From a virus, in IMG/VR virus record IMGVR_UViG_3300045988_182864: 36,620 bases of DNA; one strand, 5' to 3'. Positions 9,791 through 29,425 of this stretch are shown here, in pieces (the stretch's first letter is position 1; every line of letters begins with the position of its first letter). The notes below the pieces were generated by a model, which worked only from the letters and a program-made list of their open reading frames with translations, did not search any database and was not told the origin of the DNA. The translations under genes and the position numbers were made by a program.

Positions 9791-9813
9791 ATATAAGGAG
9801 GCATTAAGCCTCG

Positions 9814-9889: not shown

Positions 9890-9892
9890 AGA

Positions 9893-9969
9893 TGGTGACC
9901 GAAATGGGGCTTGAACCCATACTCTCAAGCTTGAAGGGCTTGCGACTTAACCAATTCGTCTATTCGGCC
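9893..9969 (-). tRNA. tRNA-Glu: tRNA-Glu(TTC) with C33 (anticodon loop CCTTCAA)
   Basis: Acceptor GGCCGAA/TTCGGTC, A73, CCA, T-arm ATGGG-TTCAAGC-CCCAT, anticodon stem CAAGC/GCTTG. Confidence 0.75.
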
Positions 9970-12077: not shown

Positions 12078-12217
12078 TGCAATTGCTTTGTCTGAGTCAG
12101 TTATTGTCGGTTACCTCCGTTCTGTGATTCCACAACCCAATCGCGTCCTGTTCGTTTTTATGAGGGGTATTTATTATTTTTGGTTGGATTTCTTACAAAA
12201 ATTGGCGGTCTACTAAT

Positions 12218-13756: not shown

Positions 13757-13977
13757 ATACGCCACCTCCTTTATGATAAGTCTCCCCTGCCGAAGCAGGA
13801 GGTTGTGTTTCCCTTGGCTGGGTGTTTGCTGCAAGTGACATTACACGAGGCAATACCACTCTTGCGGAGCTATCAACTGGGAAAATCGATAGGCGCAACA
13901 AACATCCATGTGCCTGTGATACTTATGAAATTAAGTGATTTTATTCAAACCACCAAATTTCGTAAATACCCATTTTC
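13757..13977 (-). ncRNA. candidate omegaRNA (HEARO-type) of IscB; 5' boundary and guide not resolved
   Basis: A 221-nt non-coding gap sits directly 5' of iscB on the same strand. Stems include CCUCCUGC-UUCG-GCAGGGG (7 bp with a UUCG tetraloop, 13780-13801) and CUAUCGA...UUGAUAG (7 bp). The position matches the known omegaRNA location. Confidence 0.55.
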
Positions 13978-14445
13978 TTAGATGTGTGGGAACACCTCAT
14001 ACACACTCACATACAGCATTCCCGGCTTGTAGTCAGCATACTCTACCGAACGCTTCTGGTCGTATACCTTCACATCCGAACCATCATCTGCCGTAAGCCA
14101 GAGATATTTGACATGCTCAGCATAGCGAGGGTCTTTTGCGCGATACATTTGCCCTTCTTTGATTTTGAGGCGGCGCATACAGGCTTGGACGCGGGAAAAC
14201 TCAACAAATGCACCATAGTCACCAATCACGATACGGTTGTACCCGTTGGTAATGACTGTGCCATTAGCGGTTTCGAGCGAAATCGTATCGCCGGAAACAT
14301 TGCACCATTCCGGCAATGCTTTCTGAAACTCGGCTCGCACATCGCAGAAAAAGGTGCGCTGGATAGGCTTGTATCCATAATCTCGGGCAAGTTGCTCTTG
14401 ATATTTGAGCATCTGAGCGCCGACTTCTGAAATTCTATGCTTCAT
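13978..14445 (-). CDS. hypothetical protein, 155 aa
   Basis: RBS gtcaggagtaatcg-ATG. Confidence 0.65.
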   Translation of the reverse strand: MKHRISEVGAQMLKYQEQLARDYGYKPIQRTFFCDVRAEFQKALPEWCNVSGDTISLETANGTVITNGYNRIVIGDYGAFVEFSRVQACMRRLKIKEGQMYRAKDPRYAEHVKYLWLTADDGSDVKVYDQKRSVEYADYKPGMLYVSVYEVFPHI

Positions 14446-14448
14446 CGA

Positions 14449-15129
14449 TTACTCCTGACTCAGCATCTGCGCAGAAGCAACTTCCCGAATATTGCGATTC
14501 TCTTTTTCGGGAGCCGACACAATGCGGCGATGAGAGCGCATCAGCGTCAATACGCGGTTACGGAGCTTTTCGTCCTTGATAAGCCGAGCAACCTGTTTGA
14601 TTTCCGATTCACGCAGATACATTGTACTGTTGATGAGAACGCCATGTACTTCGCCGTCTTCGGAACTTTTCTCAACCTTATCGACATTGTTATAGGCATA
14701 GATGACATCTACGTCGATGGTGATGGACGCTCTCTCAAGAAGTTCAATTCCTCCTTGGGCTACCAGCCACTTGTGTGTGTAGCTTTCGTCAGAAATGTAT
14801 GTTTCGCCAATGAGTTCCAGCGGCGGCGACACAAGGCTGTTCGTGGAATAACGGATATGGTCTTCGCTTTCGTTGAGATTATCCTGCCAAAGGCGCATCG
14901 GCTTGAGGCTCTTGTCCTTGAAGTGAATGTAGGTGTCCTGAATGAATGTGCAGATGGTCCGCTTAATATAGTCGATTTCCGGCATCTCTTCTACATTGCG
15001 GAAAACAAAGCGCGTAGACTCGCCCTCGCCGTACTCTTCGTCGTCCGTCACATAGCGGACTTTCTCCAACACAAACTTGGGTTTTAATGCCTCTTTAACG
15101 GCTTCGAGAGAAAACACATTCCACTTCAT
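14449..15129 (-). CDS. hypothetical protein, 226 aa (start MKWNVF)
   Basis: TGATG stop/start overlap with the upstream gene, with ggagag upstream. Confidence 0.65.
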   Translation of the reverse strand: MKWNVFSLEAVKEALKPKFVLEKVRYVTDDEEYGEGESTRFVFRNVEEMPEIDYIKRTICTFIQDTYIHFKDKSLKPMRLWQDNLNESEDHIRYSTNSLVSPPLELIGETYISDESYTHKWLVAQGGIELLERASITIDVDVIYAYNNVDKVEKSSEDGEVHGVLINSTMYLRESEIKQVARLIKDEKLRNRVLTLMRSHRRIVSAPEKENRNIREVASAQMLSQE

Positions 15130-15560
15130 CAAATAACTCTCCATTCTTTTACCAACTGGTCGTATTCAGCAATTTCCCGTTTTACGGTTTTTCCGTCTTT
15201 TTTATATAAGGTGATTCGCTGTGCATAGTTTGCGGCGTGTTTTTGCAGTCGCTGCAACGCGTCTTCTTCTGAGTTTGCTTTTGTAATTCCGCGATAGGAA
15301 CCACCAGAGCCTAAGATTTCGGGTTCGTACCAACCCGTTTCATAGTATACAGTCTGCTCGCCTGCTTCATCCAGAACGACTTTTCCCTGCTCGCCATAGT
15401 CACCGGTATAGTTACTGCGGATGATGTTAGCGGCACGGTCATTTCCCTGCTCCTCATAGGCTTCGGCAATGAACTCGACATAAGCCCTGAATTTTTCCTC
15501 GTCACCTTCACGATGCGCGGCGATGAGTTTTCCGATGGTCACAGCGTTTATGATGTTCAT
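15129..15560 (-). CDS. hypothetical protein, 143 aa (start MNIINAV)
   Basis: RBS ataggagtgtgtcc-ATG. Confidence 0.65.
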   Translation of the reverse strand: MNIINAVTIGKLIAAHREGDEEKFRAYVEFIAEAYEEQGNDRAANIIRSNYTGDYGEQGKVVLDEAGEQTVYYETGWYEPEILGSGGSYRGITKANSEEDALQRLQKHAANYAQRITLYKKDGKTVKREIAEYDQLVKEWRVI

Positions 15561-15594
15561 GGACACACTCCTATAAAACCGATTTTAAAATTTT

Positions 15595-15672
15595 TGGTAC
15601 TCCAGCCGGGAGTCGAACCCGGAGAAAAACGGGGTTTGAAGCCGCCGCGTATGCCAATTCCGCCACTGGAGC
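15595..15672 (-). tRNA. tRNA-Leu-like: Leu-like tRNA, anticodon CAA, but with a short (about 6 nt) variable region instead of the type II long arm
   Basis: Acceptor GCTCCAG/CTGGAGT, A73, CCA. D region GTGGCGGAATTGGCATACGCG is nearly identical to bacterial tRNA-Leu. Loop TTCAAAC. The anticodon stem has only 4 clean pairs. T-arm CCGGG-TTCGACT-CCCGG. Confidence 0.7.
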
Positions 15673-15759
15673 ATGGTATGTCGCCCACGAAAACAGACGA
15701 CAGTTGCATGGCTTGATTTTGCAGCGAATATCACATTTTATCGCTGTTTTTATGATTGT

Positions 15760-15966: not shown

Positions 15967-16677
15967 TCAAGGCTTGCTCTCTGCGGGTGCTGGCGTCCAG
16001 TATAAGAGCGTTCCGAGGATATCGCACATCGGTGCCGCCTCGAAGAAGCAAAGTGTTTCCAGAGCGTCTCTGAGGCGCTGCTCGTAGTCTGTGCGCTGCA
16101 TATCAAGGGGAACCAGCACCTTGTAGGAGCCGAAAGGCGCTTTCAGAACGGGAGATTCGGATGTCTGGTTCTCAGAAAGGTCACTCTCCCAGCCGCAGGT
16201 AACGAGATAGTCATACAGAGCATAGGGGTTTACAGCAGAGACCGTCTTTCTGCCATCAAGCATCTTGTAGGCACGGAGATACTTGGCTTCTCGTGCAAGG
16301 TCTTTGCTTGTGAGAGGATACGGGATTCGGTTAAGGTCCATGTTGCTGACGAGGTCTGCGCGTTTTACCTTGACGGCAATGTCGTTTTGCTTAACACGCC
16401 AGATATACTCTGAGTAGGTCATATCTTTTTCCCGAGTCAGTACAGAGACCGCCTCAGCCACTTTCTGAGGAAATTCCGCTCTGATGGTATCTATCGTGGT
16501 GCCGGTATCTTCCACCGTGTCGTGCAGGTAGGCGGCAGTTTTCACCAGCGGGTCAGGCTCAACGCCGTCTGCGACAACGGCCACATGCGCCGTGAAGTAG
16601 TCTTCCCCTGCCTTGTCGGTCTGGCCCTTGTGCGCCATCATAGCGAACGCCTTTGCTTTTTCAATGTAATCAATCAT
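15967..16677 (-). CDS. HD-domain protein, RelA/SpoT-type (p)ppGpp hydrolase-like N-terminal domain, 236 aa
   Basis: AMMAHKGQTDKAGEDYFTAHV...AAYLHDTVEDT carries the H...HD...ED signature of SpoT-like hydrolases. Start MIDYIEK with RBS aaaggtgatacga. Confidence 0.65.
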   Translation of the reverse strand: MIDYIEKAKAFAMMAHKGQTDKAGEDYFTAHVAVVADGVEPDPLVKTAAYLHDTVEDTGTTIDTIRAEFPQKVAEAVSVLTREKDMTYSEYIWRVKQNDIAVKVKRADLVSNMDLNRIPYPLTSKDLAREAKYLRAYKMLDGRKTVSAVNPYALYDYLVTCGWESDLSENQTSESPVLKAPFGSYKVLVPLDMQRTDYEQRLRDALETLCFFEAAPMCDILGTLLYWTPAPAESKP

Positions 16678-16728
16678 TCGTATCACCTTTCTTTGTTTCG
16701 CAAGCAGCACCATGCGGGTCTGCCAGAC

Positions 16729-16761
16729 AATAAAAAGGCTTGCCAGTTTCCCGGCAAGCCT
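16729..16761 (-). terminator. Rho-independent terminator after the lipoprotein gene
   Basis: aggcttgcc-gggaaact-ggcaagcct followed by ttttatt. Confidence 0.75.
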
Positions 16762-16813
16762 CGATGGATTCAGGTCTTTGCGGACCTATGTTGTAGTGTT
16801 GGAAACGGGAGAT

Positions 16814-19771
16814 TTACTCCGCAGCGCCCTCAACGATTACGACCTCAGCCTCGGTTTCCTTAGGCATGTCGGCATCTTCCTGCTTGGTGTCGGTGCTGTC
16901 CTCGGAAGTCTCGGCAGACTTCTCGGTCTCAGCGGACTCAACAGGAGCGGCAGGCTCGGCGGGAGTCTCAGCAGGTATAGCGGGCTCAACAGGAGCAACG
17001 GGCTCGGCAGGAGTTTCAGCAGGTACAGCAGACTCAACCGGAGTCTCTGCGACATAGGTTTCGGCGTTGATGCTCTCGGCGCTCATTTCCTGCGCCGGAA
17101 CCTCGACAACAGGCTCAGCCCCGGCTACGATAGGGTTTGCAGCCACCTTGGCACTTGCGGGCAGACGAGCGATGGACTCAGTCTTGGTCTCGCCGCAGCC
17201 AGTGCAAGTGTAGGTCTTGACACCCTCATGCTCAGTGGTAGGCTCGGTGGTAACGACACCGTTATCCCAAGTATGGTCTTTCTTGGGCGTGGTAGAGAGA
17301 ACGGTGCTCACTTCACCGCAGACGGTGCAGTAGATTTCGGTGCGACCCTCTTCCTTGCAGGTAGGCTCAATGACACGCATCTCGGCATGGTGACCGGTGG
17401 AGTGTACAATGTTGTCCTTGTAGGAGAAGCTGTCATCTTCGTTGCACTTGTGCATCGTGTAGCCGTCCTCGGTGCAAGTCGGCGGGACAACGGTAACAGT
17501 GAAGGTGTACTTGGTGGGCAGGACCTTTTCGGTCATGGTCGCATCGCAGTTCTTGCAGTGCAGGGTCTTGACGCCGTACTCGTCATGCGTGGGCTGGGTA
17601 GTGATGACACCCTCATCCCAGATATGACCAGTACCACCATAGGAGTAGGTCATGGTATGGGAAGCATCGCGCTTGCAGTGCATCAGCATAGTGCCCGGCT
17701 CGGTGCAGGTAGCCTTTTTCAGGCATTCGGTGTGCTCGAAGTCCCAGTCGTGGCTGCCGATAGCGGGCATAGGAACGAGAATTTTGCTGTCGCAGCCATC
17801 ATTGGTGCAGTACATCCAACGCTCGCCCTCAGTCTCACAAGAGGGCTCCTTGACGATTTCACCGAGACCCGTGTACTCATGGACATGGACCTTGGCAATG
17901 CTCTCGGTCTTGGTCTTGTTGCAGACGGTGCAGGTATAGGTCTTGATGCCCGGCTCGGTGGCAGTAGGCTCCTTGGTGATAACGCCCTCGTCCCACTGAT
18001 GCTCCTCATTGACGGGGATATCGCGGACATGCTGCTTATCGTTGCAGCGCTCACAGACCTTATCTACACTGCCAGCGTCCTTGCAGGTGGCGGGAGTAGT
18101 GACTTCCTTGTACTCATGACCCAGCGCAGGGACGATGTTGTCCTTGAAGGACTTGGTGGCATCTTCCACGCACTCGTGCATGGTATAGCCGTCCTCAGTG
18201 CAGGTAGGAGCGACCACGGTCTCGTTGTAGGTGTAACCCAGAGCCGGAATGCTCTCGGTGTAGGTATCACCACAGTTGTGGCAGGTGAAGGTCTTGACAC
18301 CGTTCTCGGTGTAGGTAGGCTCGGTGGTCACAACGCCGTCATCGTAATCGTGACCGGTTGCGGGGATGACCTCGGTGTAGGTATGGTTCTTGTCGTTCTG
18401 GCAAGTGAAGGTCTTGACGCCATCCTCAGTGCAGGTAGCAGCCTTGGTGACAACGCCGTCATCGTAGTTATGACCCAGCGCGGCAATCTCCTCGGTCTTA
18501 GTCTCGGTGCAGCCATCGTTCAGGCACTTGTAGGTCTTCACGCCGGAAGCCTCACAGGTAGCGGGCGTGGTGACAGTACCATCATCCCACTTGTGACCCA
18601 CAGCCGGGATGACCTCAGTCTTGGTCGCGCCGTCACGAGAGCAGGTAAAGGTCTTGACGCCATCCTCAGTGCAGGTAGCAGCCTTGGTGACGACACCCTC
18701 GCCCCAATCATGGTCCAGAGCGTCCACGAAATCGCGGTTCTCGGTCAGCGTAGCGTCCTGGTCGCAGATGTAGACGGTGTAGCCCTGCTCAGTGCAGGTG
18801 GGAGCAACCGTATCACCCTTGTGCCAAGTCTTCTCCACCATCGGGATATCCTCGGTATAGGTATCACCGCAAGCAGAGCAGGTAAAGGTCTTGACGCCCT
18901 TCTCGTAGATGGTCGCTTCCTTGGTCACGACACCCTCATCATAGGTGTGCGGGGTCTTGTCGGTGAAATTGCCCTTGTAAGTAAGACCCGGAACCTCATT
19001 GCACTCATAGATGGTATAGCCCTCAGAAGTGCAGGTGGGAGCAACGACCTGCAGGATGTGGTAGGTCTTGTCCAGAGAAGGAATCTCCTCAGTACGGGTC
19101 TCACCGCAATCCTTGCACTTGAAGGTCTTGATGCCGGTCTCGGTGTAGGTGGCAGCTTTCGTCACAGTGCCGTTATCCCAGCTATGCCCCTTGGCGGCAA
19201 CATAGTTGTCGTTGTAGTTCATACCGCCCCACTCGTTGCAGATATGCTCATCATAGCCCTGCGTGGTGCAGGTGGCGTCATGATGGCGCACGGTGAAGGT
19301 GTAGACGGGCTGAGACTTCTTCTCGGCAGGAGCGGCAGCGGGAGTCACAGCAGCAGGCTTCTGGGCAGGAGTCTTGGTGCCGGTGGTGGTTTTATGGGTG
19401 TTGTAGACGGGAGCCTTGGCGGGACCGTCCTTAGTAGAAACATTGTCGGGGTTCGTGTTCTGGCTGGCGGCGGGCTTCTCAGCCTTGTCGGAAGCGGCCT
19501 CAGACTCAGCGGTCTTGTTCTCGGTGTTGGCAGCATCGGAATTGGGCTTGCTCTCAGCCTTGCTCTCGGACGCCGCCGCGCTGGTATCTTCCTTCTCGGC
19601 AGTGTCAGGGGTTTCGGACTGTGCGGTGCTTGCGGAATCGCTCAGGCTGGTGGAAGGAGCAGAAGAGGCAGCATCCTGATTCTTCTTGCCCTTACATCCG
19701 GTAACAGAGATTGCGACTGTAGCAGCCATGGCAACTGCAAGCACATTCTTCATCATAGACTTTTTGCGCAT
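16814..19771 (-). CDS. large secreted lipoprotein with about 20 tandem Cys-containing repeats and P/A/E-rich termini, 985 aa
   Basis: Signal peptide with lipobox AISVTG-C. Repeats of the form GHxWDxGVVTKxATCTEDGVKTFTCxxCGxTxTExIPA. Near-identical DNA repeats, e.g. 18400-18455 versus 18640-18695. RBS aaaaggagaagtaaaatc-ATG. Confidence 0.8.
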   Translation of the reverse strand: MRKKSMMKNVLAVAMAATVAISVTGCKGKKNQDAASSAPSTSLSDSASTAQSETPDTAEKEDTSAAASESKAESKPNSDAANTENKTAESEAASDKAEKPAASQNTNPDNVSTKDGPAKAPVYNTHKTTTGTKTPAQKPAAVTPAAAPAEKKSQPVYTFTVRHHDATCTTQGYDEHICNEWGGMNYNDNYVAAKGHSWDNGTVTKAATYTETGIKTFKCKDCGETRTEEIPSLDKTYHILQVVAPTCTSEGYTIYECNEVPGLTYKGNFTDKTPHTYDEGVVTKEATIYEKGVKTFTCSACGDTYTEDIPMVEKTWHKGDTVAPTCTEQGYTVYICDQDATLTENRDFVDALDHDWGEGVVTKAATCTEDGVKTFTCSRDGATKTEVIPAVGHKWDDGTVTTPATCEASGVKTYKCLNDGCTETKTEEIAALGHNYDDGVVTKAATCTEDGVKTFTCQNDKNHTYTEVIPATGHDYDDGVVTTEPTYTENGVKTFTCHNCGDTYTESIPALGYTYNETVVAPTCTEDGYTMHECVEDATKSFKDNIVPALGHEYKEVTTPATCKDAGSVDKVCERCNDKQHVRDIPVNEEHQWDEGVITKEPTATEPGIKTYTCTVCNKTKTESIAKVHVHEYTGLGEIVKEPSCETEGERWMYCTNDGCDSKILVPMPAIGSHDWDFEHTECLKKATCTEPGTMLMHCKRDASHTMTYSYGGTGHIWDEGVITTQPTHDEYGVKTLHCKNCDATMTEKVLPTKYTFTVTVVPPTCTEDGYTMHKCNEDDSFSYKDNIVHSTGHHAEMRVIEPTCKEEGRTEIYCTVCGEVSTVLSTTPKKDHTWDNGVVTTEPTTEHEGVKTYTCTGCGETKTESIARLPASAKVAANPIVAGAEPVVEVPAQEMSAESINAETYVAETPVESAVPAETPAEPVAPVEPAIPAETPAEPAAPVESAETEKSAETSEDSTDTKQEDADMPKETEAEVVIVEGAAE

Positions 19772-19877
19772 GATTTTACTTCTCCTTTTTACTGTGTGAG
19801 GTGAGTCCCCACATCAACGAAACGATGTGAAGAGCGGAGGACTTCTGATATTTCGTTTTCCCTGTCGCTCTATATGC

Positions 19878-19927
19878 ATTATACCACATTTTTCCTTGAA
19901 AGTGTACTGAGTACAACCATGATTAAC
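19878..19927 (-). promoter_or_regulatory. Extended -10 promoter (TGTGgTATAAT), family 2, upstream of the lipoprotein gene
   Basis: -10 at 19878-19883, TG at 19884-19886. Conserved block catggttgtactcagtacac. Confidence 0.55.
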
Positions 19928-20013
19928 GTAATGTTCACAAATCGCAACAGAATCCGAGAGGCTCCTATCGGGAAAAAACGATTCTGGTACGATGAAAAGA
20001 AGCGCAAATATGT

Positions 20014-20048
20014 AAAAAGCAGCCGGGTACAGAGTGTATCCGACTGCT
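20014..20048 (-). terminator. Rho-independent terminator closing the tRNA/ncRNA island
   Basis: gcagtcggata-cactctg-tacccggctgc followed by ttttt, immediately 3' of tRNA-Ser(TGA). Confidence 0.7.
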
Positions 20049-20050
20049 GA

Positions 20051-20138
20051 TGGCGGATAGGGTAGGATTCGAACCCACGGACGCGGATGCATCTCTGGTT
20101 TTCAAGACCAGTTTCATAAACCACTCGGACACCTATCC
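20051..20138 (-). tRNA. tRNA-Ser: tRNA-Ser(TGA), type II
   Basis: Acceptor GGATAGG/CCTATCC, G73, CCA, anticodon arm CTGGT-CTTGAAA-ACCAG, T-arm GTGGG-TTCGAAT-CCTAC. Confidence 0.9.
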
Positions 20139-20179
20139 AAGAATCAGAGAGTGTTAGCCGCAGAAATCTGCGTTGCCCG

Positions 20180-20214
20180 CCATCTACCGCGTGGAGGTCG
20201 CTCTCAAAAGATGG
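20180..20214 (-). repeat. Conserved hairpin motif, copy 1 (plus-strand loop ACCGCGTGGAGG; minus-strand CCUCCACGCGG)
   Basis: Stem ccatct/agatgg, preceded by gttgccc. Confidence 0.6.
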
Positions 20215-20446
20215 CTGACGAGACGAATTTGTCTCGCCCATGCCGCAGCCGTTTTCGCCACTCGGCATGGTGTTTTCGGCTTGACGTAACCCTGTGTAAA
20301 TGACCCTCAGGTGGGGGCGGTGCGGGCAGGATTATCGTCTTCGTGGTGTAGTTAAGGAGTACCGCACCAAATAAATGACCGTACTGCGCTTGTGTAACAG
20401 TACAATGCACGCCCAGAGACGATTTCCAAGATGGAGATGTGTCTGG

Positions 20447-20522
20447 TGGTGGAAGCAAAGGGATTCGAACCCTCGACCCCCTGCTTGCAAAGCAGGTGCT
20501 CTCCCAGCTGAGCTATGCCCCC
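20447..20522 (-). tRNA. tRNA-Ala: tRNA-Ala(TGC)
   Basis: GGGGGCATAGCTCAGCTGGGAGAGC..., G3:U70, anticodon loop TTTGCAA, T-arm GAGGG-TTCGAAT-CCCTT, ACCA. Confidence 0.9.
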
Positions 20523-20549
20523 ATGATGGCGGGAAGGACCCGCCAGTAA

Positions 20550-20933
20550 TTACGCATAGTGAAGTTCGCCGTACTGTTTGACCTCGCGCTCCAGATGCAG
20601 CGGAATGGTCTTGGCGCTTTTCTGCGTGATATCCTCACGCGTCAGAAGGCGCTCATCGACGCCAGCTGCCTGCAGAACTTCGTACAGGTTCGAGGGACCG
20701 GTGCCGTCGTAACCCGCAGTTAAGCCATTGACCTGCAAAGCGAAGCCGTGCAGATGCGGTGCCAGACCCGGTACAAAATCGAGTTCAACAACGACTTCGT
20801 TACTGTTCTCGTCCACGCGCTTAACCGAGAGAGCACGGATGTTCTGACTTCCGAAGGCCTCAATCAGCTTCTTAGCCGCCGCTGCGGTTTCAATCGTTGA
20901 TGTGCCTTCGACATTGATAATCGCCTGCTCCAT
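20550..20933 (-). CDS. hypothetical protein, 127 aa, the only convincing CDS inside the RNA island
   Basis: RBS ggaaggag 9 nt before the ATG (MEQAIINVEG). Ordinary amino-acid composition. Confidence 0.6.
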   Translation of the reverse strand: MEQAIINVEGTSTIETAAAAKKLIEAFGSQNIRALSVKRVDENSNEVVVELDFVPGLAPHLHGFALQVNGLTAGYDGTGPSNLYEVLQAAGVDERLLTREDITQKSAKTIPLHLEREVKQYGELHYA

Positions 20934-21134
20934 CGGAATCATCTCCTTCCTACTTAGAGTTGTCATGCGCTATAGCAGATAACGCTCTGCCGTGCGGGGC
21001 TTTACGTTGCCCATTCGTGTTCGGTTCCGGCTACGACGACTTCCGTAAGGACTTAGCCAACCGTCAGCAAGTGCATGCCCCCGCTGACAGCTTCTTGGGC
21101 GGATTCTCAAAGAGCGCGTCACCCAATCGGACCG

Positions 21135-21210
21135 TGGAGCTTGATGGCAGACTCGAACTGCCGACCTGCGCGTTACGAATGCGCTGCTCTACCAACTGAG
21201 CTAACCAAGC
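21135..21210 (-). tRNA. tRNA-Thr: tRNA-Thr(CGT)
   Basis: GCTTGGTTAGCTCAGTTGGTAGAGC..., anticodon loop TTCGTAA, T-arm GGCAG-TTCGAGT-CTGCC, TCCA end. Confidence 0.85.
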
Positions 21211-21484
21211 ACGGTAGGGTGTTTTATGCTGGTTATCACCCCTCAGCGAGGAAGCCAACCTCGCGTCCAGCACCATCCGGTAGCAACCCCGGAGGATTCT
21301 GCGCTGTATCCTCTCCGATGTTTTTCAGCACCATTCGCGACTGATGCCGAGACTTTCGGATACCTTCAGGTGCAGCACCTGTTTGCCGATTCTTTTTTGA
21401 CTGTCCATTGGCAATTCGGACAGCGGACCACATGTGGACCATGTTCGCCAATTTTAATGTCGTGGCGTACGGTGACGGCGACGG

Positions 21485-21559
21485 TGGAGCGGGCAGCGGG
21501 ATTCGAACCCGCGTGACCAGCTTGGAAGGCTAGTGTATTAACCCCTATACGATGCCTGC
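21485..21559 (-). tRNA. tRNA-Gly: tRNA-Gly(TCC)
   Basis: Acceptor GCAGGCA/TGCCCGC (A3:C70 mismatch), U73, CCA, anticodon loop CTTCCAA, T-arm GCGGG-TTCGAAT-CCCGC. Confidence 0.85.
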
Positions 21560-22272
21560 ATGAGAAAAAGCGGGTGAACCCTCTCTTAGCCCCGCCATGA
21601 TGTCCGTTTAGTAGGTCGTCATCCCCGAAACATCATCTTTGTGCCTCTTAGCGATTCCGCGAATCTCTGCGTGGACGATACGAAAGAATCCGGAAAAGCA
21701 TTTTAGACACTGGTCAACTTCAATTCAAGCCCTGCCGTTACTTCCCTGTCAATTCGGGTCAACGGATTGTTACGGGCTGTGTAAGACTGCGGCAAACTTA
21801 CCAGATGCCGCGCAGCAGTCTCGCCTTTTTCGGCTATGTCGCGTCTGGCTGCGCCCCGGCTTAACGGGGATGCTCGTACGATGCATGCTTAGCGGGACGA
21901 GATTTGTTGTTTCTGCGCCGAAGCACAAGAGGAAGCACTCGCCCACACAGCTTCCTGACCGTTTAGGATACCGCTTGCACAGGGAATGCAATGCGGTTCC
22001 TGAAAGGACATTCGTCAGCGGCAATCATAGTCGCTGTCCACCACCCGCCGCGTGGAGGCTGTCCCATCGGGTGGCTGAGTGCGCCGAGGTATGGACGCAC
22101 TCAGATAGGCGCTACCTATTATGGTGTTTTAAGGCGGGAGCTGCCCGCCATCAGGTAAATCAGTACATCGGTGTGACCCTTTCCTTGATTTTGACATTCG
22201 GACGCGGTAATTACTGCATCGGAGTGCCCTCCCTGTTTTATTTGACCTGTTAGAATCGCTTCCAACAGGTCA
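21560..22272 (-). ncRNA. about 710-nt ORF-poor, hairpin-dense segment between tRNA genes; candidate large structured RNA (class unknown; ROOL/GOLLD-like context)
   Basis: More than 10 local or long-range stems read by eye. Examples: agactgc(ggc)...(gcc)gcgcagcagtct, ggaagc/gcttcc, accgc-ttgca...tgcaa-gcggt, ctgagtgcg/cgcactcag, ggcggg-agct-cccgcc, acctgtt/aacaggt. The ORFs present are Cys/Arg/Trp-rich and lack an RBS. Confidence 0.5.
22041..22074 (-). repeat. Conserved hairpin motif, copy 2 (loop GCCGCGTGGAGG)
   Basis: Stem ccaccc/gggtgg, inside the long non-coding segment. Confidence 0.6.
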
Positions 22273-22363
22273 TGGCTCTGGCAGGTGGAGTTGAACCACC
22301 TTTTCCCGTGCGCTGCGGGCGAATTAACCATGGTGCATTGCAACCTTCGTATTCGATACCAGA
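22273..22363 (-). ncRNA. tRNA-like element: canonical acceptor stem, T-arm and CCA, but aberrant D and anticodon regions
   Basis: Acceptor TCTGGTA/TGCCAGA, G73, CCA, T-arm GGTGG-TTCAACT-CCACC. The 5-bp stem CGAAT/ATTCG encloses a 26-nt insert. The short arm CCCG-CAGCGCA-CGGG has A at position 33. Confidence 0.5.
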
Positions 22364-22430
22364 ATATTTCGGTCATTTTACGTCCGACCGATTGACATGA
22401 ATAGCCGGTTTAACGTCATGGCATGGACGA

Positions 22431-22505
22431 TGGGTGCGGAGACAGGACTTGAACCTGCAACCGCCAGCGTATGGGGCTGGTAAGCTACCTTTGCTATACT
22501 CCGCG
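22431..22505 (-). tRNA. tRNA-Met-type: tRNA with CAT anticodon (Met, fMet or Ile2 type) with C33 (loop CCCATAC) and a C1xA72 mismatch
   Basis: Acceptor CGCGGAG/CTCCGCA, C73, CCA, anticodon stem CCAGC/GCTGG, T-arm GCAGG-TTCAAGT-CCTGT. Confidence 0.75.
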
Positions 22506-22581
22506 TGGCGGGTCGTACTGGGTTCGAACCAGCGACGCTCGGATTAACAGTCCGATGCTCTACCGACTGAGCTAACGACCC
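22506..22581 (-). tRNA. tRNA-Asn: tRNA-Asn(GTT)
   Basis: GGGTCGTTAGCTCAGTCGGTAGAGC..., anticodon loop CTGTTAA, T-arm GCTGG-TTCGAAC-CCAGT, GCCA end. It abuts the previous tRNA with no spacer. Confidence 0.9.
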
Positions 22582-22628
22582 AAGAAAAAAGACATTCGCC
22601 ACGGGGAGCTCAATACCCGTGTTACCGC

Positions 22629-22660
22629 CGCTCGCCGCGAGGAGGCTGTCTTTATGAGCG
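22629..22660 (-). repeat. Conserved hairpin motif, copy 3 (loop GCCGCGAGGAGG)
   Basis: Stem cgctc/gagcg, preceded by gttaccg. Confidence 0.55.
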
Positions 22661-22842
22661 ACAACTCTTATGGGATACCAGATACGATGCTTGCCGCTGC
22701 TCTACAACCAGCCGCAAGCGGATGTGTATGTAAGTGTGTGTAAAACTATGATGTTGTTTCGGAGCGTATCTGGTATCTTTTAAGAGTTTTATGTTATCTG
22801 CGAAGATGTTCGCCAAGCTAAGGGAGGTTAAGCTTGTTGCCC

Positions 22843-22877
22843 GATGCCGACCGCGTGGAGGTCATCTTCTCGGCATC
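22843..22877 (-). repeat. Conserved hairpin motif, copy 4 (loop CCGCGTGGAGG), directly abutting the 3' end of tRNA-Thr(TGT)
   Basis: Stem gatgccga/tcggcatc, preceded by gttgccc. Confidence 0.6.
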
Positions 22878-22950
22878 AGCTTCTGACAGGATTCGAACCT
22901 GTGACCCGCTGCTTACAAAACAGCTGCTCTGTCAACTGAGCTACAGAAGC
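22878..22950 (-). tRNA. tRNA-Thr: tRNA-Thr(TGT), no encoded CCA
   Basis: GCTTCTGTAGCTCAGTTGACAGAGC..., anticodon loop TTTGTAA, T-arm ACAGG-TTCGAAT-CCTGT. Confidence 0.85.
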
Positions 22951-23002
22951 ATATTCAGGAGAAGTAACTCTCCCGAAAAATAGGTAAATTACCCTTCTAC
23001 CA

Positions 23003-23030
23003 ATTATCTGCAATTCGCATATTTTGTCAA
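23003..23030 (-). promoter_or_regulatory. Family 1 promoter TTGACA-16-GATAAT with TGCGAA spacer element, upstream of the RNA island
   Basis: -35 at 23025-23030, TGCGAA at 23014-23019 (plus strand ttcgca), -10 at 23003-23008. Confidence 0.65.
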
Positions 23031-23113
23031 CACAAAAGTGCCACATACAGTGTCCAGAACGGAAAATGTTGTGCATAAGCACAACATATAGTGTTTTCCG
23101 TTTCTGTACTTGC

Positions 23114-23165
23114 ATTATACCATATTTTGGCGTGAAAGTGTATCAAATACAAGTATGATTTACAA
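23114..23165 (-). promoter_or_regulatory. Extended -10 promoter (TGgTATAAT), family 2
   Basis: -10 at 23114-23119, TG at 23120-23122. Upstream block ttgtaaatcatacttgtat is shared with 15760-15811. Confidence 0.55.
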
Positions 23166-23898: not shown

Positions 23899-24587
23899 AT
23901 GTCAGCAATCGAAGGCGTCCAGTCTTTGTCTTTGCCGTACCCGCATACGGGGCATACGAGCGGGATATTTTTGCAGCTGCCGGTCGTATACATGTCGGGG
24001 CCGAATTCATTGTCAGGGTGCCACAAAGCGGCGATTTGAGGGCATGCAACTGATACTACAGGTTTCCTTGCTGTTTTGGCGTAGTGGGCTCTCATGACCT
24101 TTCTCAGTGAGTTTCTGGCGCATTCTGGACATCCGGTATGTACTTCCCCGGACCCGCAGGCAAAAGCAATCATCGGATGCCATTCCCCGCTTGCGCCGTA
24201 CCCGCAATCCTTGCAGACAAGGTATACATGCTTTGCGCTTCCGGAAGTCACTCGCGTGGGCGGGAACTCATTAAGTGTCGGATGCCACTGTGCAGCGATT
24301 TCGGGATGTACGGTAGCTACATCATTGACGCCTTCGACAAGGACTTTTCCGGAACACGCCGGGCATCCGCCGCCTGTTCGACAGGCACCGGCGATAGAGG
24401 GACGCCATTCGCCGTTCTTTCCGTATCCGCATTTCTGGCAGATAATAGCGATTCTGCGATTGCTGCCGCAGGTGACTTCCTCCGGTGATACAGAATTGGC
24501 TGTCGGATGCCACATAGTAGCAACGCAGGGACATTCCTGTGCTACCGTTCCACGATGCCTGCGATACCGCCACTCGAAATCTTTCAC
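23850..24587 (-). CDS. zinc-ribbon repeat protein (four DUF4379-like W-H-P...C-x2-C...GEW...C-P-x-C modules), 245 aa
   Basis: Four repeats such as WHPTLNEFPPTRVTSGSAKHVYLVCKDCGYGASGEWHPMIAFACGSGEVHTGCPEC. The GTG start overlaps the upstream TGA (GTGA). Confidence 0.6.
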   Translation of the reverse strand: MKDFEWRYRRHRGTVAQECPCVATMWHPTANSVSPEEVTCGSNRRIAIICQKCGYGKNGEWRPSIAGACRTGGGCPACSGKVLVEGVNDVATVHPEIAAQWHPTLNEFPPTRVTSGSAKHVYLVCKDCGYGASGEWHPMIAFACGSGEVHTGCPECARNSLRKVMRAHYAKTARKPVVSVACPQIAALWHPDNEFGPDMYTTGSCKNIPLVCPVCGYGKDKDWTPSIADICRKGAKCPFCGNIVR

Positions 24588-25768
24588 GGTACAACCACCC
24601 CCGCCCGTTTATGGATGTTTTCGGACTTTGCGATATTTACAGCTGTGCTGTAGGAGATACCATATATATCCGCAAGGTCACGAAGATTTTTGCCGGTATT
24701 CATCCGTGCAAATTCCGCAAATTCCCGGTTTCGGGCTTTTACATTATCCGTGATAGGAGAACGGCTTTGCGTGGCTTTACGGGTTTCGGCTTCTGTCAGC
24801 GATTCAGAAAGCTTTCCGTAGTCGTGCAGAATCTTATAGGTCTGACCCACGGCAATCTTATGGTCTTTAGCAATGTCGGAGACGCTTTTCCCGTTCTGGT
24901 ATTCTCCCGCAATCCCCTCGCAGACTTCTTCCGGCAGCGTCTTCTTCATTTTTGCGTTGCCGCGCAGGTTCTTGCGGTAGAGGGGATGATGTGTCCGGTA
25001 TTTCTGTATAAGCCCCGCAATGAATCGCGGCGTGACATTGTACCGTACTGCGATATTCTCTACCTTGACACCCGCTTTGTAGTCTTTCAGGATATCGTTG
25101 TTCCGCGCTTCGACTTCCTCCTGGGTCTTGGTGTCTTCCAAGGCTTCACGCTGTAGCCCCAATACTTTCGGGCTGTGCTTGAATTCCGGGATGTTCATGG
25201 GTGGTTCAGGACCGAAACGGACAAGACCACCAGAAATCGGATGCCCTGCTTCTCGAAATACCTGATAGGTGGTGGATTCCGATAACCCATACTTGTCCAT
25301 GATTTCTCCGACAGTCATGTACGGATTTGCCCTGACATCCGCAACGATTTCAGCATTGCGCTGGCGTTTCTTGAACTGTACAGCTGACCCGATATTCTCT
25401 TTGTGCGGGGTATAATCAGGGCTTCTGCGCAGGATATGATAGACCTGTTGTCCAGAGAGATTGTATTTCTCAGCGATTTCAAAGGTCCAGGCCCCGTTTT
25501 TGTAGTCTTGCGCAATCTCAATATTCCGCTGCTCCATGTCGGCTTTCGACAATCGTTTCTGATTGTTGGGTTTCCGATTCGGGCTTTTGCGGTCATTGCG
25601 GCGCACAGCATCAAAACCCTCTAACACTTCAAGGGATTTCTTAACATTCGTGCAGCTGATACCGTATTTCTCAGCCAATTCCGCGATGTGCATACCGGCG
25701 ACATAATCGTTCAGCATTGCCTTATCGCGGTTCAGCTTTGCTTCTCCGGTCAAACTTTTCCGATGCAT
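24584..25768 (-). CDS. protein built from about six tandem helix-turn-helix modules, 394 aa
   Basis: Repeats of the form RNxEIxxDYxxGxxxxEIAEKYxxSxxxVYxIL. Start MHRKSL with RBS aatcaggaggatacacc. Confidence 0.7.
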   Translation of the reverse strand: MHRKSLTGEAKLNRDKAMLNDYVAGMHIAELAEKYGISCTNVKKSLEVLEGFDAVRRNDRKSPNRKPNNQKRLSKADMEQRNIEIAQDYKNGAWTFEIAEKYNLSGQQVYHILRRSPDYTPHKENIGSAVQFKKRQRNAEIVADVRANPYMTVGEIMDKYGLSESTTYQVFREAGHPISGGLVRFGPEPPMNIPEFKHSPKVLGLQREALEDTKTQEEVEARNNDILKDYKAGVKVENIAVRYNVTPRFIAGLIQKYRTHHPLYRKNLRGNAKMKKTLPEEVCEGIAGEYQNGKSVSDIAKDHKIAVGQTYKILHDYGKLSESLTEAETRKATQSRSPITDNVKARNREFAEFARMNTGKNLRDLADIYGISYSTAVNIAKSENIHKRAGVVVP

Positions 25769-26664
25769 GGTGTATCCTCCTGATTTGCTACCCAGTCGAT
25801 GATATGGTCGATGCAAAGATTCGTGATTTTGCTTGCGGTATAATACTGTGAAGTGTCATTGAGCAGCGATTCAATTTCCGTTTCGGATGCCGAATACCCT
25901 ACTGATGCAAAGAACAGCCTTGTGAGGGTACGCGCATCGTCCCGGCACAGAGGTCTTACCGTATGCCCAAAGGTGAAACGCCGGAACAGAGCATCGTCCA
26001 GAGTATCGGGACGGTTCGTGGTCCCGATAAGGATGATTTCGTTGCCGAGTCTGTCAAGTTCCTGCATCAGGGCAATCGTCACACGGTTCATCTCCGCAAC
26101 ATCGTCCTTGCCGCCGCGCCGTGTCCCGATAGCGTCAATCTCATCGAGGCAGAGCACGCACGGACTTTTCCTTGCATAGTCGAATACCATACCGATATTC
26201 TTCTGTGTTTTGCCCAGAGCGGAATTCACCATACCGGAGAAATTTGTGTACACGAAAGGAAGGTTCGTCGTATAAGCTATATACCGCGCCAACTCAGTCT
26301 TTCCGGTTCCCGGCTCGCCCATGAGTAAAAGAGAACTCGTATAGTGAATCCCCATCTCCTGTAACCGCAGCGCAGCACGGCGCGTCTTGCACATTTTATC
26401 AATGACCGCCTTCTCGCTGTCTCGGATGAGGAACCGGTCTTCTCGGAAAGCGCTCGAATCCTCCGCGACCAAAAGCCCCTGCAGGTTATACGGCAGTTCG
26501 ATGAGTGTAGGACTTTTACTTGCAAGTGTTCGCAGACAGGTTTCCTTGAACGCTTTGTCCTTGACAGTAGTAAGCCCCTCCAACACGATTTTCGCCTGTT
26601 GCTGAGATTTCCGAATATCCCCTTCCACTACATACCGAAGCAATGCCCGTTCATTCTCGTTCAC
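25750..26664 (-). CDS. AAA+ ATPase (classic clade), 304 aa (GTG start)
   Basis: Walker A GEPGTGKTELA. Walker B VLCLDEIDA. Second region of homology GTTNRPDTLDDALFRRF. RBS gagggagggaaattaa. Confidence 0.85.
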   Translation of the reverse strand: MNENERALLRYVVEGDIRKSQQQAKIVLEGLTTVKDKAFKETCLRTLASKSPTLIELPYNLQGLLVAEDSSAFREDRFLIRDSEKAVIDKMCKTRRAALRLQEMGIHYTSSLLLMGEPGTGKTELARYIAYTTNLPFVYTNFSGMVNSALGKTQKNIGMVFDYARKSPCVLCLDEIDAIGTRRGGKDDVAEMNRVTIALMQELDRLGNEIILIGTTNRPDTLDDALFRRFTFGHTVRPLCRDDARTLTRLFFASVGYSASETEIESLLNDTSQYYTASKITNLCIDHIIDWVANQEDTPCIGKV

Positions 26665-26718: not shown

Positions 26719-27204
26719 TCAATCTCTTTTACATTTCTGCTTACGGACGCGCCGAATAATACTGTAAATACCCGGCAAGGAATAATGGTATGCCTTAGCG
26801 AGGTCTTTGGCCTCGATGCCGTTTTGGTATTTCTCGAAGATTTCATCGTTGCGTTTTTGCTGACGGCGGGTGATGCGACGATGACTGAGTTCTTTGTTGC
26901 TGATTCCGGCCTGAACCGCGATGGCACTGCAATACCCTACGGAAACGCCGTACTTTTCGGCAATGTCGCGGACACGCGTATTTTTCTGATACTCCGCCAC
27001 GATTTTATCGACCAGATTGGTATGGTCCTGTTCTTCCGCAATGCGCTGCGCCTGCCGCTCCTCATCGAGAGCGCGGTAGCAAGTCCTGATGCAAAGCCCG
27101 TATTTCTCGGACAGTTCCTCGAACGATAGACCGTTCTCGTAGTCCTTTACAATCTTCTCGTTTCGTTCGATGATTTCGCTGCGGGTTGCTTTCCTTTTCC
27201 TCAT
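26719..27204 (-). CDS. protein with three tandem HTH modules, 161 aa
   Basis: NEKIVKDYENGLSFEELSEKYGLCIRTCYRAL, KIVAEYQKNTRVRDIAEKYGVSVGYC and NDEIFEKYQNGIEAKDLAKAYHYSLPGIYSII. Confidence 0.7.
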   Translation of the reverse strand: MRKRKATRSEIIERNEKIVKDYENGLSFEELSEKYGLCIRTCYRALDEERQAQRIAEEQDHTNLVDKIVAEYQKNTRVRDIAEKYGVSVGYCSAIAVQAGISNKELSHRRITRRQQKRNDEIFEKYQNGIEAKDLAKAYHYSLPGIYSIIRRVRKQKCKRD

Positions 27205-27210
27205 ACTGGT

Positions 27211-27729
27211 TCACCCCTTAGGCTTTGCTGCCTTCTTTTTGCGTCCCTTGCCGCGATAGATACCGGCCTCATGAAGATACTTGAATCCGGAAGAGGGACT
27301 GATACCGTATTCCCGAGCAAGGTTCTCGACCGGCGTGTTGGGGTTCTTCTTCGCGTAGTCCACAAACCCCTGCTTGAAATCTTTAATGCGGCGCAAAGTA
27401 GAGGTCTCGATTTTCGTGTCGAGGTGCCGGTGGTAGGAGTCCCCGCCTTCTTTCAGAATACGAAAAATCGTGGCGCGGTTAAGGTTAAAAGTTTTTGCCA
27501 GTTCTTCGGCTGAAATGCCTTCCTGATACTGGTTGCGAATCTCGTCGTTGCGGTTGTCCTTCCACTCCGTAAAAGTCACTTTCCGCCGCTTCTCCATCTC
27601 AGCCTGTGCGATATGGTAGACGGTTTGTGGGCTGAGTCCGTGCTCCTGCGCGAGGTCCGTGACCTTTGCGCCATTTTGCAGTGCATCGGTAATTTTTCGA
27701 TTGCGTTCCAGCAACTTTTTATGCGTCAT
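27211..27729 (-). CDS. protein with three tandem HTH modules, 172 aa
   Basis: Start MTHKKLL with RBS tgggaggttttt. Modules KITDALQNGAKVTDLAQEHGLSPQTVYHIA, NDEIRNQYQEGISAEELAKTFNLNRATIFRIL and NPNTPVENLAREYGISPSSGFKYL. Confidence 0.7.
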   Translation of the reverse strand: MTHKKLLERNRKITDALQNGAKVTDLAQEHGLSPQTVYHIAQAEMEKRRKVTFTEWKDNRNDEIRNQYQEGISAEELAKTFNLNRATIFRILKEGGDSYHRHLDTKIETSTLRRIKDFKQGFVDYAKKNPNTPVENLAREYGISPSSGFKYLHEAGIYRGKGRKKKAAKPKG

Positions 27730-27740
27730 AAAAACCTCCC

Positions 27741-27877
27741 AAAATAAAAGAAGCAAGCTCCCGAAAGAACTTGCTTCTTATAATCTGTGTTCACTTTTTT
27801 CGCGTGATGCGGGCAAAAAACTCACCCACTGATTCACTTTACAGTTTTCATTTTACCCAATTCGCACGAATGTGCAA
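27741..27877 (-). promoter_or_regulatory. Cassette D: family 1 promoter TTGCAC-16-TAAAAT, non-homologous leader and terminator directly before the RBS of the HTH operon
   Basis: -35 at 27872-27877, -10 at 27850-27855, TGCGAA in the spacer. Hairpin aagaagcaag...cttgcttctt followed by ttatttt at 27741-27779. Confidence 0.6.
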
Positions 27878-28909: not shown

Positions 28910-29425
28910 TTACAGGTTCAGCGAGATGTTGCGGGCACTGGGCTCGTATTTCTTAGTCTCTACCCCGGTAATCTTGAACATGTGTCGTGCAGCGACATTG
29001 TTGTTCGCATCCCGGTACTTGTCGTCGAGATACACGATACGCTTTATCCCGCTCTGAATGATTGCTTTCGCACACTCGTTGCACGGGAAAAGCGTGACAT
29101 ACATCGTAGACCCGTGCAGGTCTTTCCCGGCGTTGAGGATAGCGTTCAACTCCGAGTGGCAGACATACATGTACTTGGTTTCGAGTTCGTTTCCTTCCCT
29201 GCCCCAAGGCATGATATCGTCATCGCAGCCAATCGGCATACCGTTGTACCCCAGAGACAGGATTTTATTGTCGCGCACGATACATGCGCCCACCTGACTG
29301 TTCGGGTCTTTGCTGCGCATCGCGGACAGCATCGCAATGCCCATGAAATACTCGTCCCACGAGATATAGTCGCGGCGTTTGGCGGTGTTGTTCTGAGATG
29401 CTTCGTTTTTAGGTGAAATGCTCAT
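28910..29425 (-). CDS. deoxycytidylate (dCMP) deaminase, 171 aa
   Basis: Zinc-binding motifs VCHSELNA (HxE) and PCNECAK (PCxxC). WDEYFMGIAMLSAMRSKDP is typical of the ComEB/dCMP deaminase family. RBS agaaggagaaccat. Confidence 0.85.
   Translation of the reverse strand: MSISPKNEASQNNTAKRRDYISWDEYFMGIAMLSAMRSKDPNSQVGACIVRDNKILSLGYNGMPIGCDDDIMPWGREGNELETKYMYVCHSELNAILNAGKDLHGSTMYVTLFPCNECAKAIIQSGIKRIVYLDDKYRDANNNVAARHMFKITGVETKKYEPSARNISLNL

Follow-up and report, generated by a model that had tools for sequence, protein, structure and literature searches.

A probable RNA operon punctuated by tRNAs and hepatitis delta virus-like ribozymes in a lineage of gut phages

The RNA island and its tRNAs

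The 36,620-nucleotide (nt) stretch of viral DNA held in IMG/VR record IMGVR_UViG_3300045988_182864 (the window) contains, between positions 20014 and 23030 on its minus strand, a 3-kb unit made up largely of RNA genes. This unit holds seven tRNAs, one tRNA look-alike, one small coding sequence (CDS), four ribozymes resembling that of hepatitis delta virus (HDV) and at least three conserved structured RNAs, and is probably a phage RNA operon punctuated by ribozymes and tRNAs, in which one precursor would be divided into defined pieces. Read from 5' to 3', the first half of the unit consists of a putative promoter, tRNA-Thr(UGU), ribozyme 1, a structured segment (SegA), ribozyme 2, 5 nt, tRNA-Asn, a tRNA with the anticodon CAU and a second segment (SegB). 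The second half continues with ribozyme 3, SegD, tRNA-Gly, SegE, tRNA-Thr(CGU), the 5' untranslated region (UTR) and CDS, tRNA-Ala, SegC, ribozyme 4, 7 nt, tRNA-Ser and a terminator-like hairpin. All island features described below lie on the minus strand.

The tRNA and tRNA-like genes, together with the promoter- and terminator-like sites, give the region the appearance of the single RNA-dense minus-strand unit that a preliminary description of the window had proposed, and these sites were found where that description had placed them. The putative promoter at 23003-23030 is of the sigma-70 type (TTGACA-16-GATAAT), matches the consensus at 11 of 12 positions and lies approximately 50 nt upstream of the first tRNA. 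Further upstream, an extended -10 promoter-like motif (TGGTATAAT) can be read at 23114-23122, and a terminator-like hairpin (23066-23087) is found between this motif and the second promoter. This motif is found again at 19878-19886 and, ahead of the island, in the related contig L040 (approximately 4600-4612), each time preceding a transcription unit, and is probably a phage promoter signature. At the opposite end, a hairpin of the intrinsic terminator type (GCAGUCGG...CCGGCUGC) followed by UUUUU occupies 20014-20048; the hairpin proper (20048-20018) folds at -18.0 kcal/mol and was overlooked by a terminator scan because its loop is long.

tRNAs were called over the window with ARAGORN and Rfam models. 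ARAGORN reports 14 tRNAs, seven of them on the minus strand within 20051-22950, and Rfam agrees on these seven, whose places and identities had been given correctly in the preliminary description. They are tRNA-Thr(UGU) (22878-22950, 68.1 bits), tRNA-Asn(GUU) (22506-22581, 70.1 bits), the tRNA with anticodon CAU that abuts it (22431-22505, 47.2 bits), tRNA-Gly(UCC) (21485-21559, 57.9 bits), tRNA-Thr(CGU) (21135-21210, 60.9 bits), tRNA-Ala(UGC), which carries a G3:U70 pair (20447-20522), and tRNA-Ser(UGA) (20051-20138, 47.6 bits). CCA is encoded by six of the seven, the exception being tRNA-Thr(UGU), whose discriminator U adjoins G1 of ribozyme 1 with 0 nt between them. A lone tRNA-Leu(CAA) lies at 15595-15672 (minus strand). 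In three relatives a transfer-messenger RNA (tmRNA; tag DNNRYASPIAA, Rfam 86.7 bits) sits inside a second, larger tRNA array (L043 9884-10283, L047 9895-10294, L073 9829-10228); none is present in the window.

The eighth tRNA-like gene, also placed correctly at the outset, is a tRNA-Arg(GCG)-like element with an encoded G-CCA end at 22273-22363, identified by its fold and by alignment of relatives. It possesses a 7-base-pair (bp) acceptor stem, a 4-bp D stem closing a 26-nt D-loop, an anticodon-like stem of 4-5 bp with the loop CAGCGCA (A33 in the window, U33 in relatives) and a canonical T-arm (GGUGG-UUCAACU-CCACC), and compensatory changes occur among relatives in its acceptor, anticodon and T stems. 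As found in the window it is called by neither ARAGORN nor Rfam; ARAGORN reports tRNA-Arg(GCG) only after an 8-nt loop has been substituted for the 26-nt D-loop. Recognition by the models, U33 and a normal D-loop, the marks of a canonical tRNA, are all absent from this element. A second kind of tRNA-like element occupies the tRNA-Ala slot in distant relatives (L066 6436-6511, L040 6448-6523, L073 6442-6517, L201 10490-10563), where ARAGORN labels it 'tRNA-???'. It has a 6-nt anticodon loop (CGCAAA), A3-U70 in place of G3:U70, and intact acceptor and T arms, a combination that fits a processing signal better than a decoder; this element is likely a non-decoding processing signal.

The spacers between the tRNAs measure 296, 713, 274, 168 and 308 nt, as had been claimed, and are abnormally long at 170-710 nt when compared with the 3, 78, 3, 23 and 3 nt that separate the six tRNAs of the window's other array (9369-9969, minus strand; the 78-nt gap is 9551-9628), which contains no ribozyme. 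They are also structured, three segments folding with z = -8.0, -3.7 and -3.4 relative to shuffled sequences, and their open reading frames (ORFs) are implausible, leaving 20550-20933 (127 amino acids) as the only plausible CDS. An Rfam scan of the island revealed what the preliminary description had missed: four of its 'stems' are HDV-like ribozymes (RF02682). The spacers are structured and non-coding as described, but they are not generic structure, consisting instead of a known ribozyme class plus distinct conserved modules. The presence of these ribozymes explains how the pieces can be separated.

Four HDV-like ribozymes

The four segments are HDV-like 'theta' ribozymes, a known class, and their sequences predict self-cleavage. 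Ribozymes 1 (22801-22877), 2 (22587-22662), 3 (22003-22075) and 4 (20146-20215) match the Rfam family RF02682 (HDV-F-prausnitzii) on the minus strand with 37.0 bits (E 1.8e-4), 44.3 bits, 28.1 bits (E 0.02) and 45.6 bits, the bounds of the matches being 22800-22877, 22588-22662, 22008-22075 and 20145-20215, respectively. On our own covariance model R1, made from 15 copies of this phage lineage with the window's four included, they score 64-73 bits (64.2, 73.2, 67.6 and 66.0). All four are on the gene strand and inside the island, and R1 run with filters off finds nothing else above 10 bits, neither further nor degenerate ribozymes, in 19900-23100.

The full HDV topology with both pseudoknots was tested on 39 distinct copies, taken from ten relatives as well as the window. 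The nested double pseudoknot (P1, P2, P3, P1.1, P4) is supported by the pairing of 91.8% of cells, as against 33-54% in slid-partner controls. P1 is 97.8% paired and covaries at seven of seven pairs, the P2 pseudoknot is 83% paired and covaries at five of five, and P3 and P1.1 are conserved. The C of J4/2 that aligns to the catalytic position is invariant in all 39 copies; the J4/2 region of the window's copies reads GGCGAA, GGCGAA, GACGAA and GGCUAA, and each of the four ribozymes begins with G.

Theta ribozymes were described as minimal HDV-like ribozymes of gut Caudoviricetes, and 58% of their occurrences in annotated phage databases have the tRNA 3' end no more than 5 nt from the cut, the other 42% or so being 'isolated' copies of unknown function (Kienbeck et al. 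2024, PMC10879173). The island copies resemble the published ones in fold and core (P1, P1.1, P2, P3, a short P4 and the C in J4/2), in their position on the gene strand and in their habitat, uncultivated gut phages. Ribozyme 1 also agrees in its predicted cut, which coincides with the 3' end of a CCA-less tRNA (distance 0 nt). The other three differ: ribozymes 2, 3 and 4 cut 215, 355 and 231 nt after the preceding tRNA and so fall outside the tRNA-associated sub-class (cut within 5 nt of the tRNA 3' end). Ribozymes 2 and 4 instead end 5 and 7 nt upstream of tRNA-Asn and tRNA-Ser, respectively, with their predicted cuts at the 3' end of a structured RNA, and ribozyme 3 precedes a large structured RNA. 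Its homologue in distant relatives stands directly 5' of the SegD core (L066 5157-5229, core from 5230), and in the more distant contig L201 the ribozyme that elsewhere lies ahead of SegD is placed directly before the CDS. The words 'upstream' and 'leader' appear nowhere in the text of PMC10879173. The same work proposes that theta ribozymes make tRNA 3' ends in connection with stop-codon recoding; because none of the window's 14 tRNAs is a suppressor tRNA and its ORFs are open in the standard code, this link does not apply to the island. Usage of the ribozymes here is a variant of the published one, in that most copies serve non-tRNA RNAs or occupy tRNA leaders.

The placement of the ribozymes recurs among relatives, in which each locus has between four and eight ribozymes, all of them on the gene strand. 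A census of 200 related loci yielded 104 distinct combinations of ribozyme and context. In 15 of these the ribozyme abuts a tRNA 3' end, in 36 it ends no more than 20 nt upstream of a tRNA (Thr-UGU 16, Ser-UGA 9, Asn 7, CAU 3), and in 53 it does neither. For all four ribozymes of the window a helix end coincides with the predicted cut or lies 2 nt before it, this helix being the tRNA acceptor stem for ribozyme 1 and a stable hairpin for ribozymes 2-4. Across the census, the last paired upstream base is within 2 nt of the cut in 68% of cases compared to 38% at random positions, and the 60 nt upstream of the cut have a mean minimum free energy (MFE) of -19.7 kcal/mol compared to -12.7 kcal/mol.

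These observations may also be read in another way, namely that the spacers are cis-acting processing scaffolds that insulate or speed tRNA maturation and whose released pieces are degraded as by-products. Ribozymes adjoin tRNAs in 51 of the 104 contexts, and a helix before most cleavage sites would keep the ribozyme from misfolding. However, SegE touches no ribozyme in the window, SegD lies downstream of ribozyme 3 and so does not owe its 3' end to it, and the window's other tRNA array matures without such spacers. Together with the conservation of the spacers described below, these points make the scaffold explanation rather unlikely.

Conserved structured RNAs between the tRNAs

The spacer segments are distinct from one another in structure. 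SegA (22663-22800) consists of a 14-nt linker and an irregular hairpin of approximately 126 nt with perfect stems of 8 and 13 bp (MFE -46.7 kcal/mol, z = -8.0); its last base is paired, and its 3' end is the cleavage site of ribozyme 2. SegB, of 355 nt, comprises a hairpin, the tRNA-Arg-like element, a 13-bp hairpin, a repeated motif of approximately 45 nt and a terminal hairpin. In the remainder of SegB that follows the tRNA-like element (22076-22272), delimited by folding and by alignment of relatives, the 13-bp hairpin (22271-22243) is conserved, the motif (GGG.CAC.CCGAUG...) is present in two to three copies, and the terminal 8-bp hairpin stops at the cleavage site of ribozyme 3. SegC (20216-20446; alignment A10), a structured RNA of 231 nt with a pseudoknot, begins at the 3' end of tRNA-Ala and closes with a hairpin that stops 2 nt before the cleavage site of ribozyme 4.

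SegD is approximately 448 nt long in all and is divided into a 110-nt 5' extension and a core of approximately 320 nt. The extension (21893-22002) contains covarying hairpins with compensatory pairs (alignment A3, columns 8-96) and is missing from the most distant relatives. The core (21560-21892; alignments A4 and A8), which reaches to the 5' end of tRNA-Gly, is invariant over its 5' 120 nt and carries an invariant palindrome, CGUACG, in one hairpin loop. A hairpin at its 3' end (21565-21596, GCGGGG...CCCGC) is followed by UUUUU only in the window's lineage and a few relatives, and by AAUCUU elsewhere; hairpin and U-tract may form a lineage-specific partial terminator before tRNA-Gly. SegE (21211-21484; alignments A2 and A9) is a structured RNA of 274 nt with an invariant hairpin loop, G-UCGCGA-A. 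SegF (20934-21134), recognized by comparison with relatives, is the 201-nt 5' UTR of the small gene, and is missing in distant relatives, where that gene comes directly after a tRNA or a ribozyme.

The loops A-CGUACG-A of SegD and G-UCGCGA-A of SegE are both self-complementary hexamers flanked by purines, and CGUACG occurs again in another loop of SegE. Palindromes make up three of 54 loop hexamers compared to 0.84 expected by chance, which hints, if faintly, at kissing-loop pairing by SegD and SegE.

Relatives of the island were collected by searching IMG/VR with the 127-amino-acid protein encoded in it (80 loci at 76-100% amino-acid identity) and with a 17-mer of SegD (at least 120 loci). 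Conserved copies of SegC, SegD and SegE occur in over 100 related contigs, all uncultivated and at most 389 kb long, whose sample identifiers indicate gut-associated samples, and a more distant contig from ENA (L201) encodes the protein at 66% identity. SegC is the most widely kept module, being present with its downstream ribozyme in all relatives, L201 included. The family of modules has so far been seen only in one lineage of gut phages. A blastn search of the whole island against 50,697 GenBank phage records returned matches to the tRNAs only and nothing for SegC, SegD or SegE, and the tail-lysozyme protein of these phages is only approximately 30% identical to Staphylococcus myovirus proteins. 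Two conserved motifs had no exact match in 185,579 GTDB representative genomes, exact patterns being blind to remote homologues.

Compared over their full length with more distant relatives, the SegD core and SegE show 82-87% identity and SegC 75-86%, while in the same comparisons the embedded CDS is 87-96% identical at first and second codon positions and 46-58% identical at third positions. Because the spacers are far more identical than third codon positions, they are under purifying selection approximately as strong as that on amino-acid-determining positions. They are at least as well conserved as the neighbouring tRNAs and far better than synonymous sites, which speaks against the scaffold explanation. 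Nor would an insulating hairpin need the long unpaired stretches and loops that are invariant here (the 120 nt of SegD, CGUACG and UCGCGA).

The same comparison bears on the suggestion that the spacers are decayed mobile elements or former tRNAs and ribozymes (IS200/605 ends, omega-RNA relics or pseudo-tRNAs) that look conserved through kinship alone. IscB-like and TnpB-like genes do occur in these phages, one relative carries a HEARO RNA, some relatives have the 3' domain of SegC in duplicate and tRNA-like elements with defective loops exist. However, the spacers remain 82-87% identical where neutral sites are near saturation (46-58%), and their helices are maintained by compensatory changes. 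In addition, no Rfam family, HEARO included, matches the spacers at E <= 5-10, and the island holds no degenerate ribozyme copies. An origin of the spacers as mere relics is therefore very unlikely.

Covariation among relatives, which the preliminary description had named as a check on whether the spacers are simply rapidly degraded by-products, is present: the spacers are conserved and they covary. The SegD core (A8) has 98.8% of its cells paired and 20 pairs changed on both sides, compared to 12.4 in shuffled alignments and 1-7 when partners are slid. SegC (A10, including a pseudoknot helix recognized by eye) is 98.4% paired, with 15 double-changed pairs against 8.0 shuffled and 0-3 slid. 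SegE (A9) is 98.0% paired, with 12 double-changed pairs against 10.5 shuffled and 0-3 slid; counted by cells, 79 have changed on both sides compared to 26.6 in shuffles. The conserved G:U pairs of the spacer RNAs are compatible with the minus strand only.

These data also bear on whether unrecognised small proteins might be encoded in the spacers, on one strand or the other. Every copy contains stop-free stretches (41-104 codons), and a 204-amino-acid ORF on the plus strand spans 21639-22253. Unlike in the real CDS, the variable columns show no third-position bias, falling evenly over the three phases (45/48/49, 46/44/46 and 39/42/38), and lengths differ among relatives by non-multiples of three. 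Substitutions cluster in paired columns, where they are compensatory, and the translated ORFs have a high content of Cys, Arg and Trp and match no family. Small proteins are accordingly a scarcely credible explanation, and SegC, SegD and SegE are best described as conserved non-coding RNAs.

Rfam yields no match of any family to these three RNAs (E <= 5 over the island; E <= 10 over 21130-22010, 881 nt). On this basis RNase P RNA, tmRNA, group I and II introns, T-box, HEARO/omega-RNA and 6S were rejected as identities, the threshold for SegD and SegE being E <= 10. Short resemblances to RNase P motifs (GAAGUUGACCA, GAAAGUC and CAGAAUCC) were also dropped, since the P4-like strand is part of a local hairpin that covaries and GAAAGUC is variable at its A residues; in alignments the RNase-P-like short motifs of SegD and SegE do not behave like CR-I and CR-IV. 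SegC, SegD and SegE are candidate new RNA families, and may be among the 10,006 unnamed candidates of a 2023 catalogue of structured phage RNAs (PMC10690425).

Several findings weigh against the view of the island as an operon of punctuated, functional RNAs. Ribozymes 1 and 3 (37.0 and 28.1 bits) fall below the 44-bit gathering score of RF02682, which ribozymes 2 and 4 exceed. The relatives span only approximately 75-100% identity, which limits the power of the covariation tests; the double-changed pair count of SegE was reached by 114 of 500 shuffles and is thus not above them, and because the 5' 120 nt of SegD never vary, the fold in that part is unsupported by covariation. SegA is found only in close relatives (at least 93% identity), and is uninformative on covariation and evidently not essential. 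The block SegD-tRNA-Gly-SegE-tRNA-Thr(CGU) is absent from L201, so that the modules are not all essential. In approximately ten relatives (L007 at 3338-5535, L009, L011, L012, L021, L024, L037, L039, L045 and L056), a 2.2-kb TnpB-like insertion interrupts a hairpin loop of SegE at the position of window 21432/21433, which indicates that SegE is dispensable or at least interruptible. Gain and loss of modules and the tolerance of SegE for this insertion are what the scaffold explanation would lead one to expect.

The insertion encodes a 579-amino-acid TnpB-like protein with the RuvC-type motifs GIDIG, EDMNY and RDLYSA. An IStron was considered and rejected; no group I intron was detected in the insertion, which therefore looks like a plain element of the IS200/605 type. 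In some relatives (L047, L065) a ribozyme lies between tRNA-Gly and SegE, so that SegD and SegE need not be one molecule.

Proposed processing, known systems and neighbouring genes

The cut of an HDV-type ribozyme falls at its own 5' end and yields a 2',3'-cyclic phosphate and a 5'-OH, while RNase P cuts tRNA 5' ends and RNase Z or exonucleases make tRNA 3' ends. From the syntax of the island, which recurs in relatives, we infer that the unit could be co-transcribed and cleaved in vivo as follows. A minus-strand precursor would run from a single sigma-70-type promoter at 23030-23003, perhaps also from the one at 23122-23114, to a single intrinsic terminator at 20048-20014. Host RNase P would cut the 5' ends of the tRNAs and tRNA-like structures, RNase Z or exonucleases would make the tRNA 3' ends, and the four theta ribozymes would each cleave at their own 5' end. 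Ribozyme 1 would replace RNase Z in making the 3' end of the CCA-less tRNA-Thr. Ribozymes 2, 3 and 4 would form the 3' ends of SegA, SegB and SegC, within 2 nt of the base of the terminal helix and bearing a 2',3'-cyclic phosphate; ribozymes 2 and 4 would then be discarded as the 5' leader of the next tRNA, and ribozyme 3 would stay on the 5' end of SegD as a compact structured cap with a 5'-OH. The 3' ends of SegD and SegE would arise from RNase P acting on the following tRNA, as in MALAT1/mascRNA, and the mRNA of the 127-amino-acid protein would be excised between tRNA-Thr(CGU) and tRNA-Ala. The predicted products are seven tRNAs, the tRNA-Arg-like RNA, one mRNA, and SegA, the SegB remainder, SegC, SegD and SegE as stable non-coding RNAs.

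The use of tRNAs as punctuation is familiar from the mitochondrial model, from the 3'-end mechanism of MALAT1/mascRNA and from the tRNA cluster of phage T4 with its stable RNAs C and D. The island is like these systems in having tRNA or tRNA-like folds that could serve as signals for RNase P and RNase Z, its small mRNA and SegD and SegE being flanked in this way, and in that the non-decoding tRNA-like elements of the island group retain just the acceptor and T arms. It differs in joining tRNA punctuation to self-cleaving ribozymes in one precursor, and no description of this combination in a natural precursor was found in the literature searched. The logic is the same as that of synthetic ribozyme-guide RNA-ribozyme and tRNA-guide RNA arrays, in which an HDV ribozyme 3' of the cargo gives an exact 3' end and tRNAs release their neighbours; however, those arrays are engineered, while the island is natural.

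A parallel in genomic niche is provided by ROOL and GOLLD, large ornate RNAs of phages and prophages that are often found beside tRNA islands, the GOLLD linker sometimes carrying a tRNA (PMC12286853). SegC, SegD and SegE are likewise phage-encoded, highly structured RNAs of several hundred nt inside a tRNA island, and the order SegD-tRNA-Gly-SegE resembles that of GOLLD with a tRNA in its linker. However, the Rfam models of ROOL and GOLLD give no match even at E <= 10, and the island RNAs are smaller (230-320 nt each). As a working guess, SegC, SegD and SegE may act in trans as RNAs, as is suspected for ROOL and GOLLD. A bolder proposal, and a long shot, is that they represent three new classes of ornate RNA excised by tRNAs and ribozymes, with SegD and SegE forming homo- or hetero-oligomers through their CGUACG and UCGCGA loops as small functional cousins of the ROOL and GOLLD nanocages, and that 'isolated' theta ribozymes generally give such RNAs exact 3' ends capped by a cyclic phosphate.

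The theta ribozyme class, which explains the separation of the pieces, was already known; the three conserved RNAs, the tRNA-Arg-like RNA and the ribozymes in leader position appear to be new. The island and its relatives provide a concrete context for 'isolated' theta copies, which here would punctuate a multi-gene precursor and define the 3' ends of structured RNAs, often just before a tRNA, and make their function in this context directly testable. They also contribute three candidate RNA families on which purifying selection is clear and which share the genomic niche of ROOL and GOLLD, and non-decoding tRNA-like elements with intact acceptor and T arms would parallel mascRNA-type signals in a bacterial virus.

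The only CDS of the island (20550-20933) encodes 127 amino acids from M12 of a 138-amino-acid ORF and is preceded by AAGGAG 9 nt upstream; compared with L066, its first, second and third codon positions are 87, 91 and 48% identical. The protein matches no Pfam or PHROG family, its homologues are unnamed and confined to this phage group, and its AlphaFold model (mean predicted local distance difference test score, pLDDT, 51.5) was too poor for a fold search and was not used.

Downstream of the island, an HD_4 phosphohydrolase gene (PF13328, phrog_990; 15967-16713, minus strand) is found near the island even in the most distant relative (L201 12306-13010), and might, speculatively, encode the enzyme that removes the 2',3'-cyclic phosphate after ribozyme cleavage. 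A 985-amino-acid lipoprotein-like protein (16814-19771, minus strand) has a signal sequence with Cys and many Cys-rich 'GVKTFTC' repeats, and the 1030-amino-acid antisense ORF that mirrors it (16712-19804, plus strand), odd in composition, is almost certainly spurious. Further away, a 538-amino-acid IscB-like protein with RRXRR (PF14239) and HNH domains is encoded at 12218-13834 (minus strand). Within 11900-15700 there is no HEARO match at E <= 1, and so no omega-RNA was found beside this gene; upstream of it, 610 nt (13835-14445) contain only an unsupported 155-amino-acid ORF, and a divergent guide RNA might lie there. The HEARO RNA of the relative mentioned above is at 8097-8355 of L072 (92.5 bits).

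Upstream of the island, a deaminase of the cytidine/deoxycytidylate type (PF00383), a family that also includes the tRNA deaminase TadA, is encoded at 28910-29425 (minus strand). Several Mor-like regulators with multiple helix-turn-helix motifs are also encoded there (24584-25816 and 26719-27756, minus strand), with an AAA ATPase gene (25750-26664) between them, and the regulators and the ATPase gene are found upstream of the island in L201 as well.

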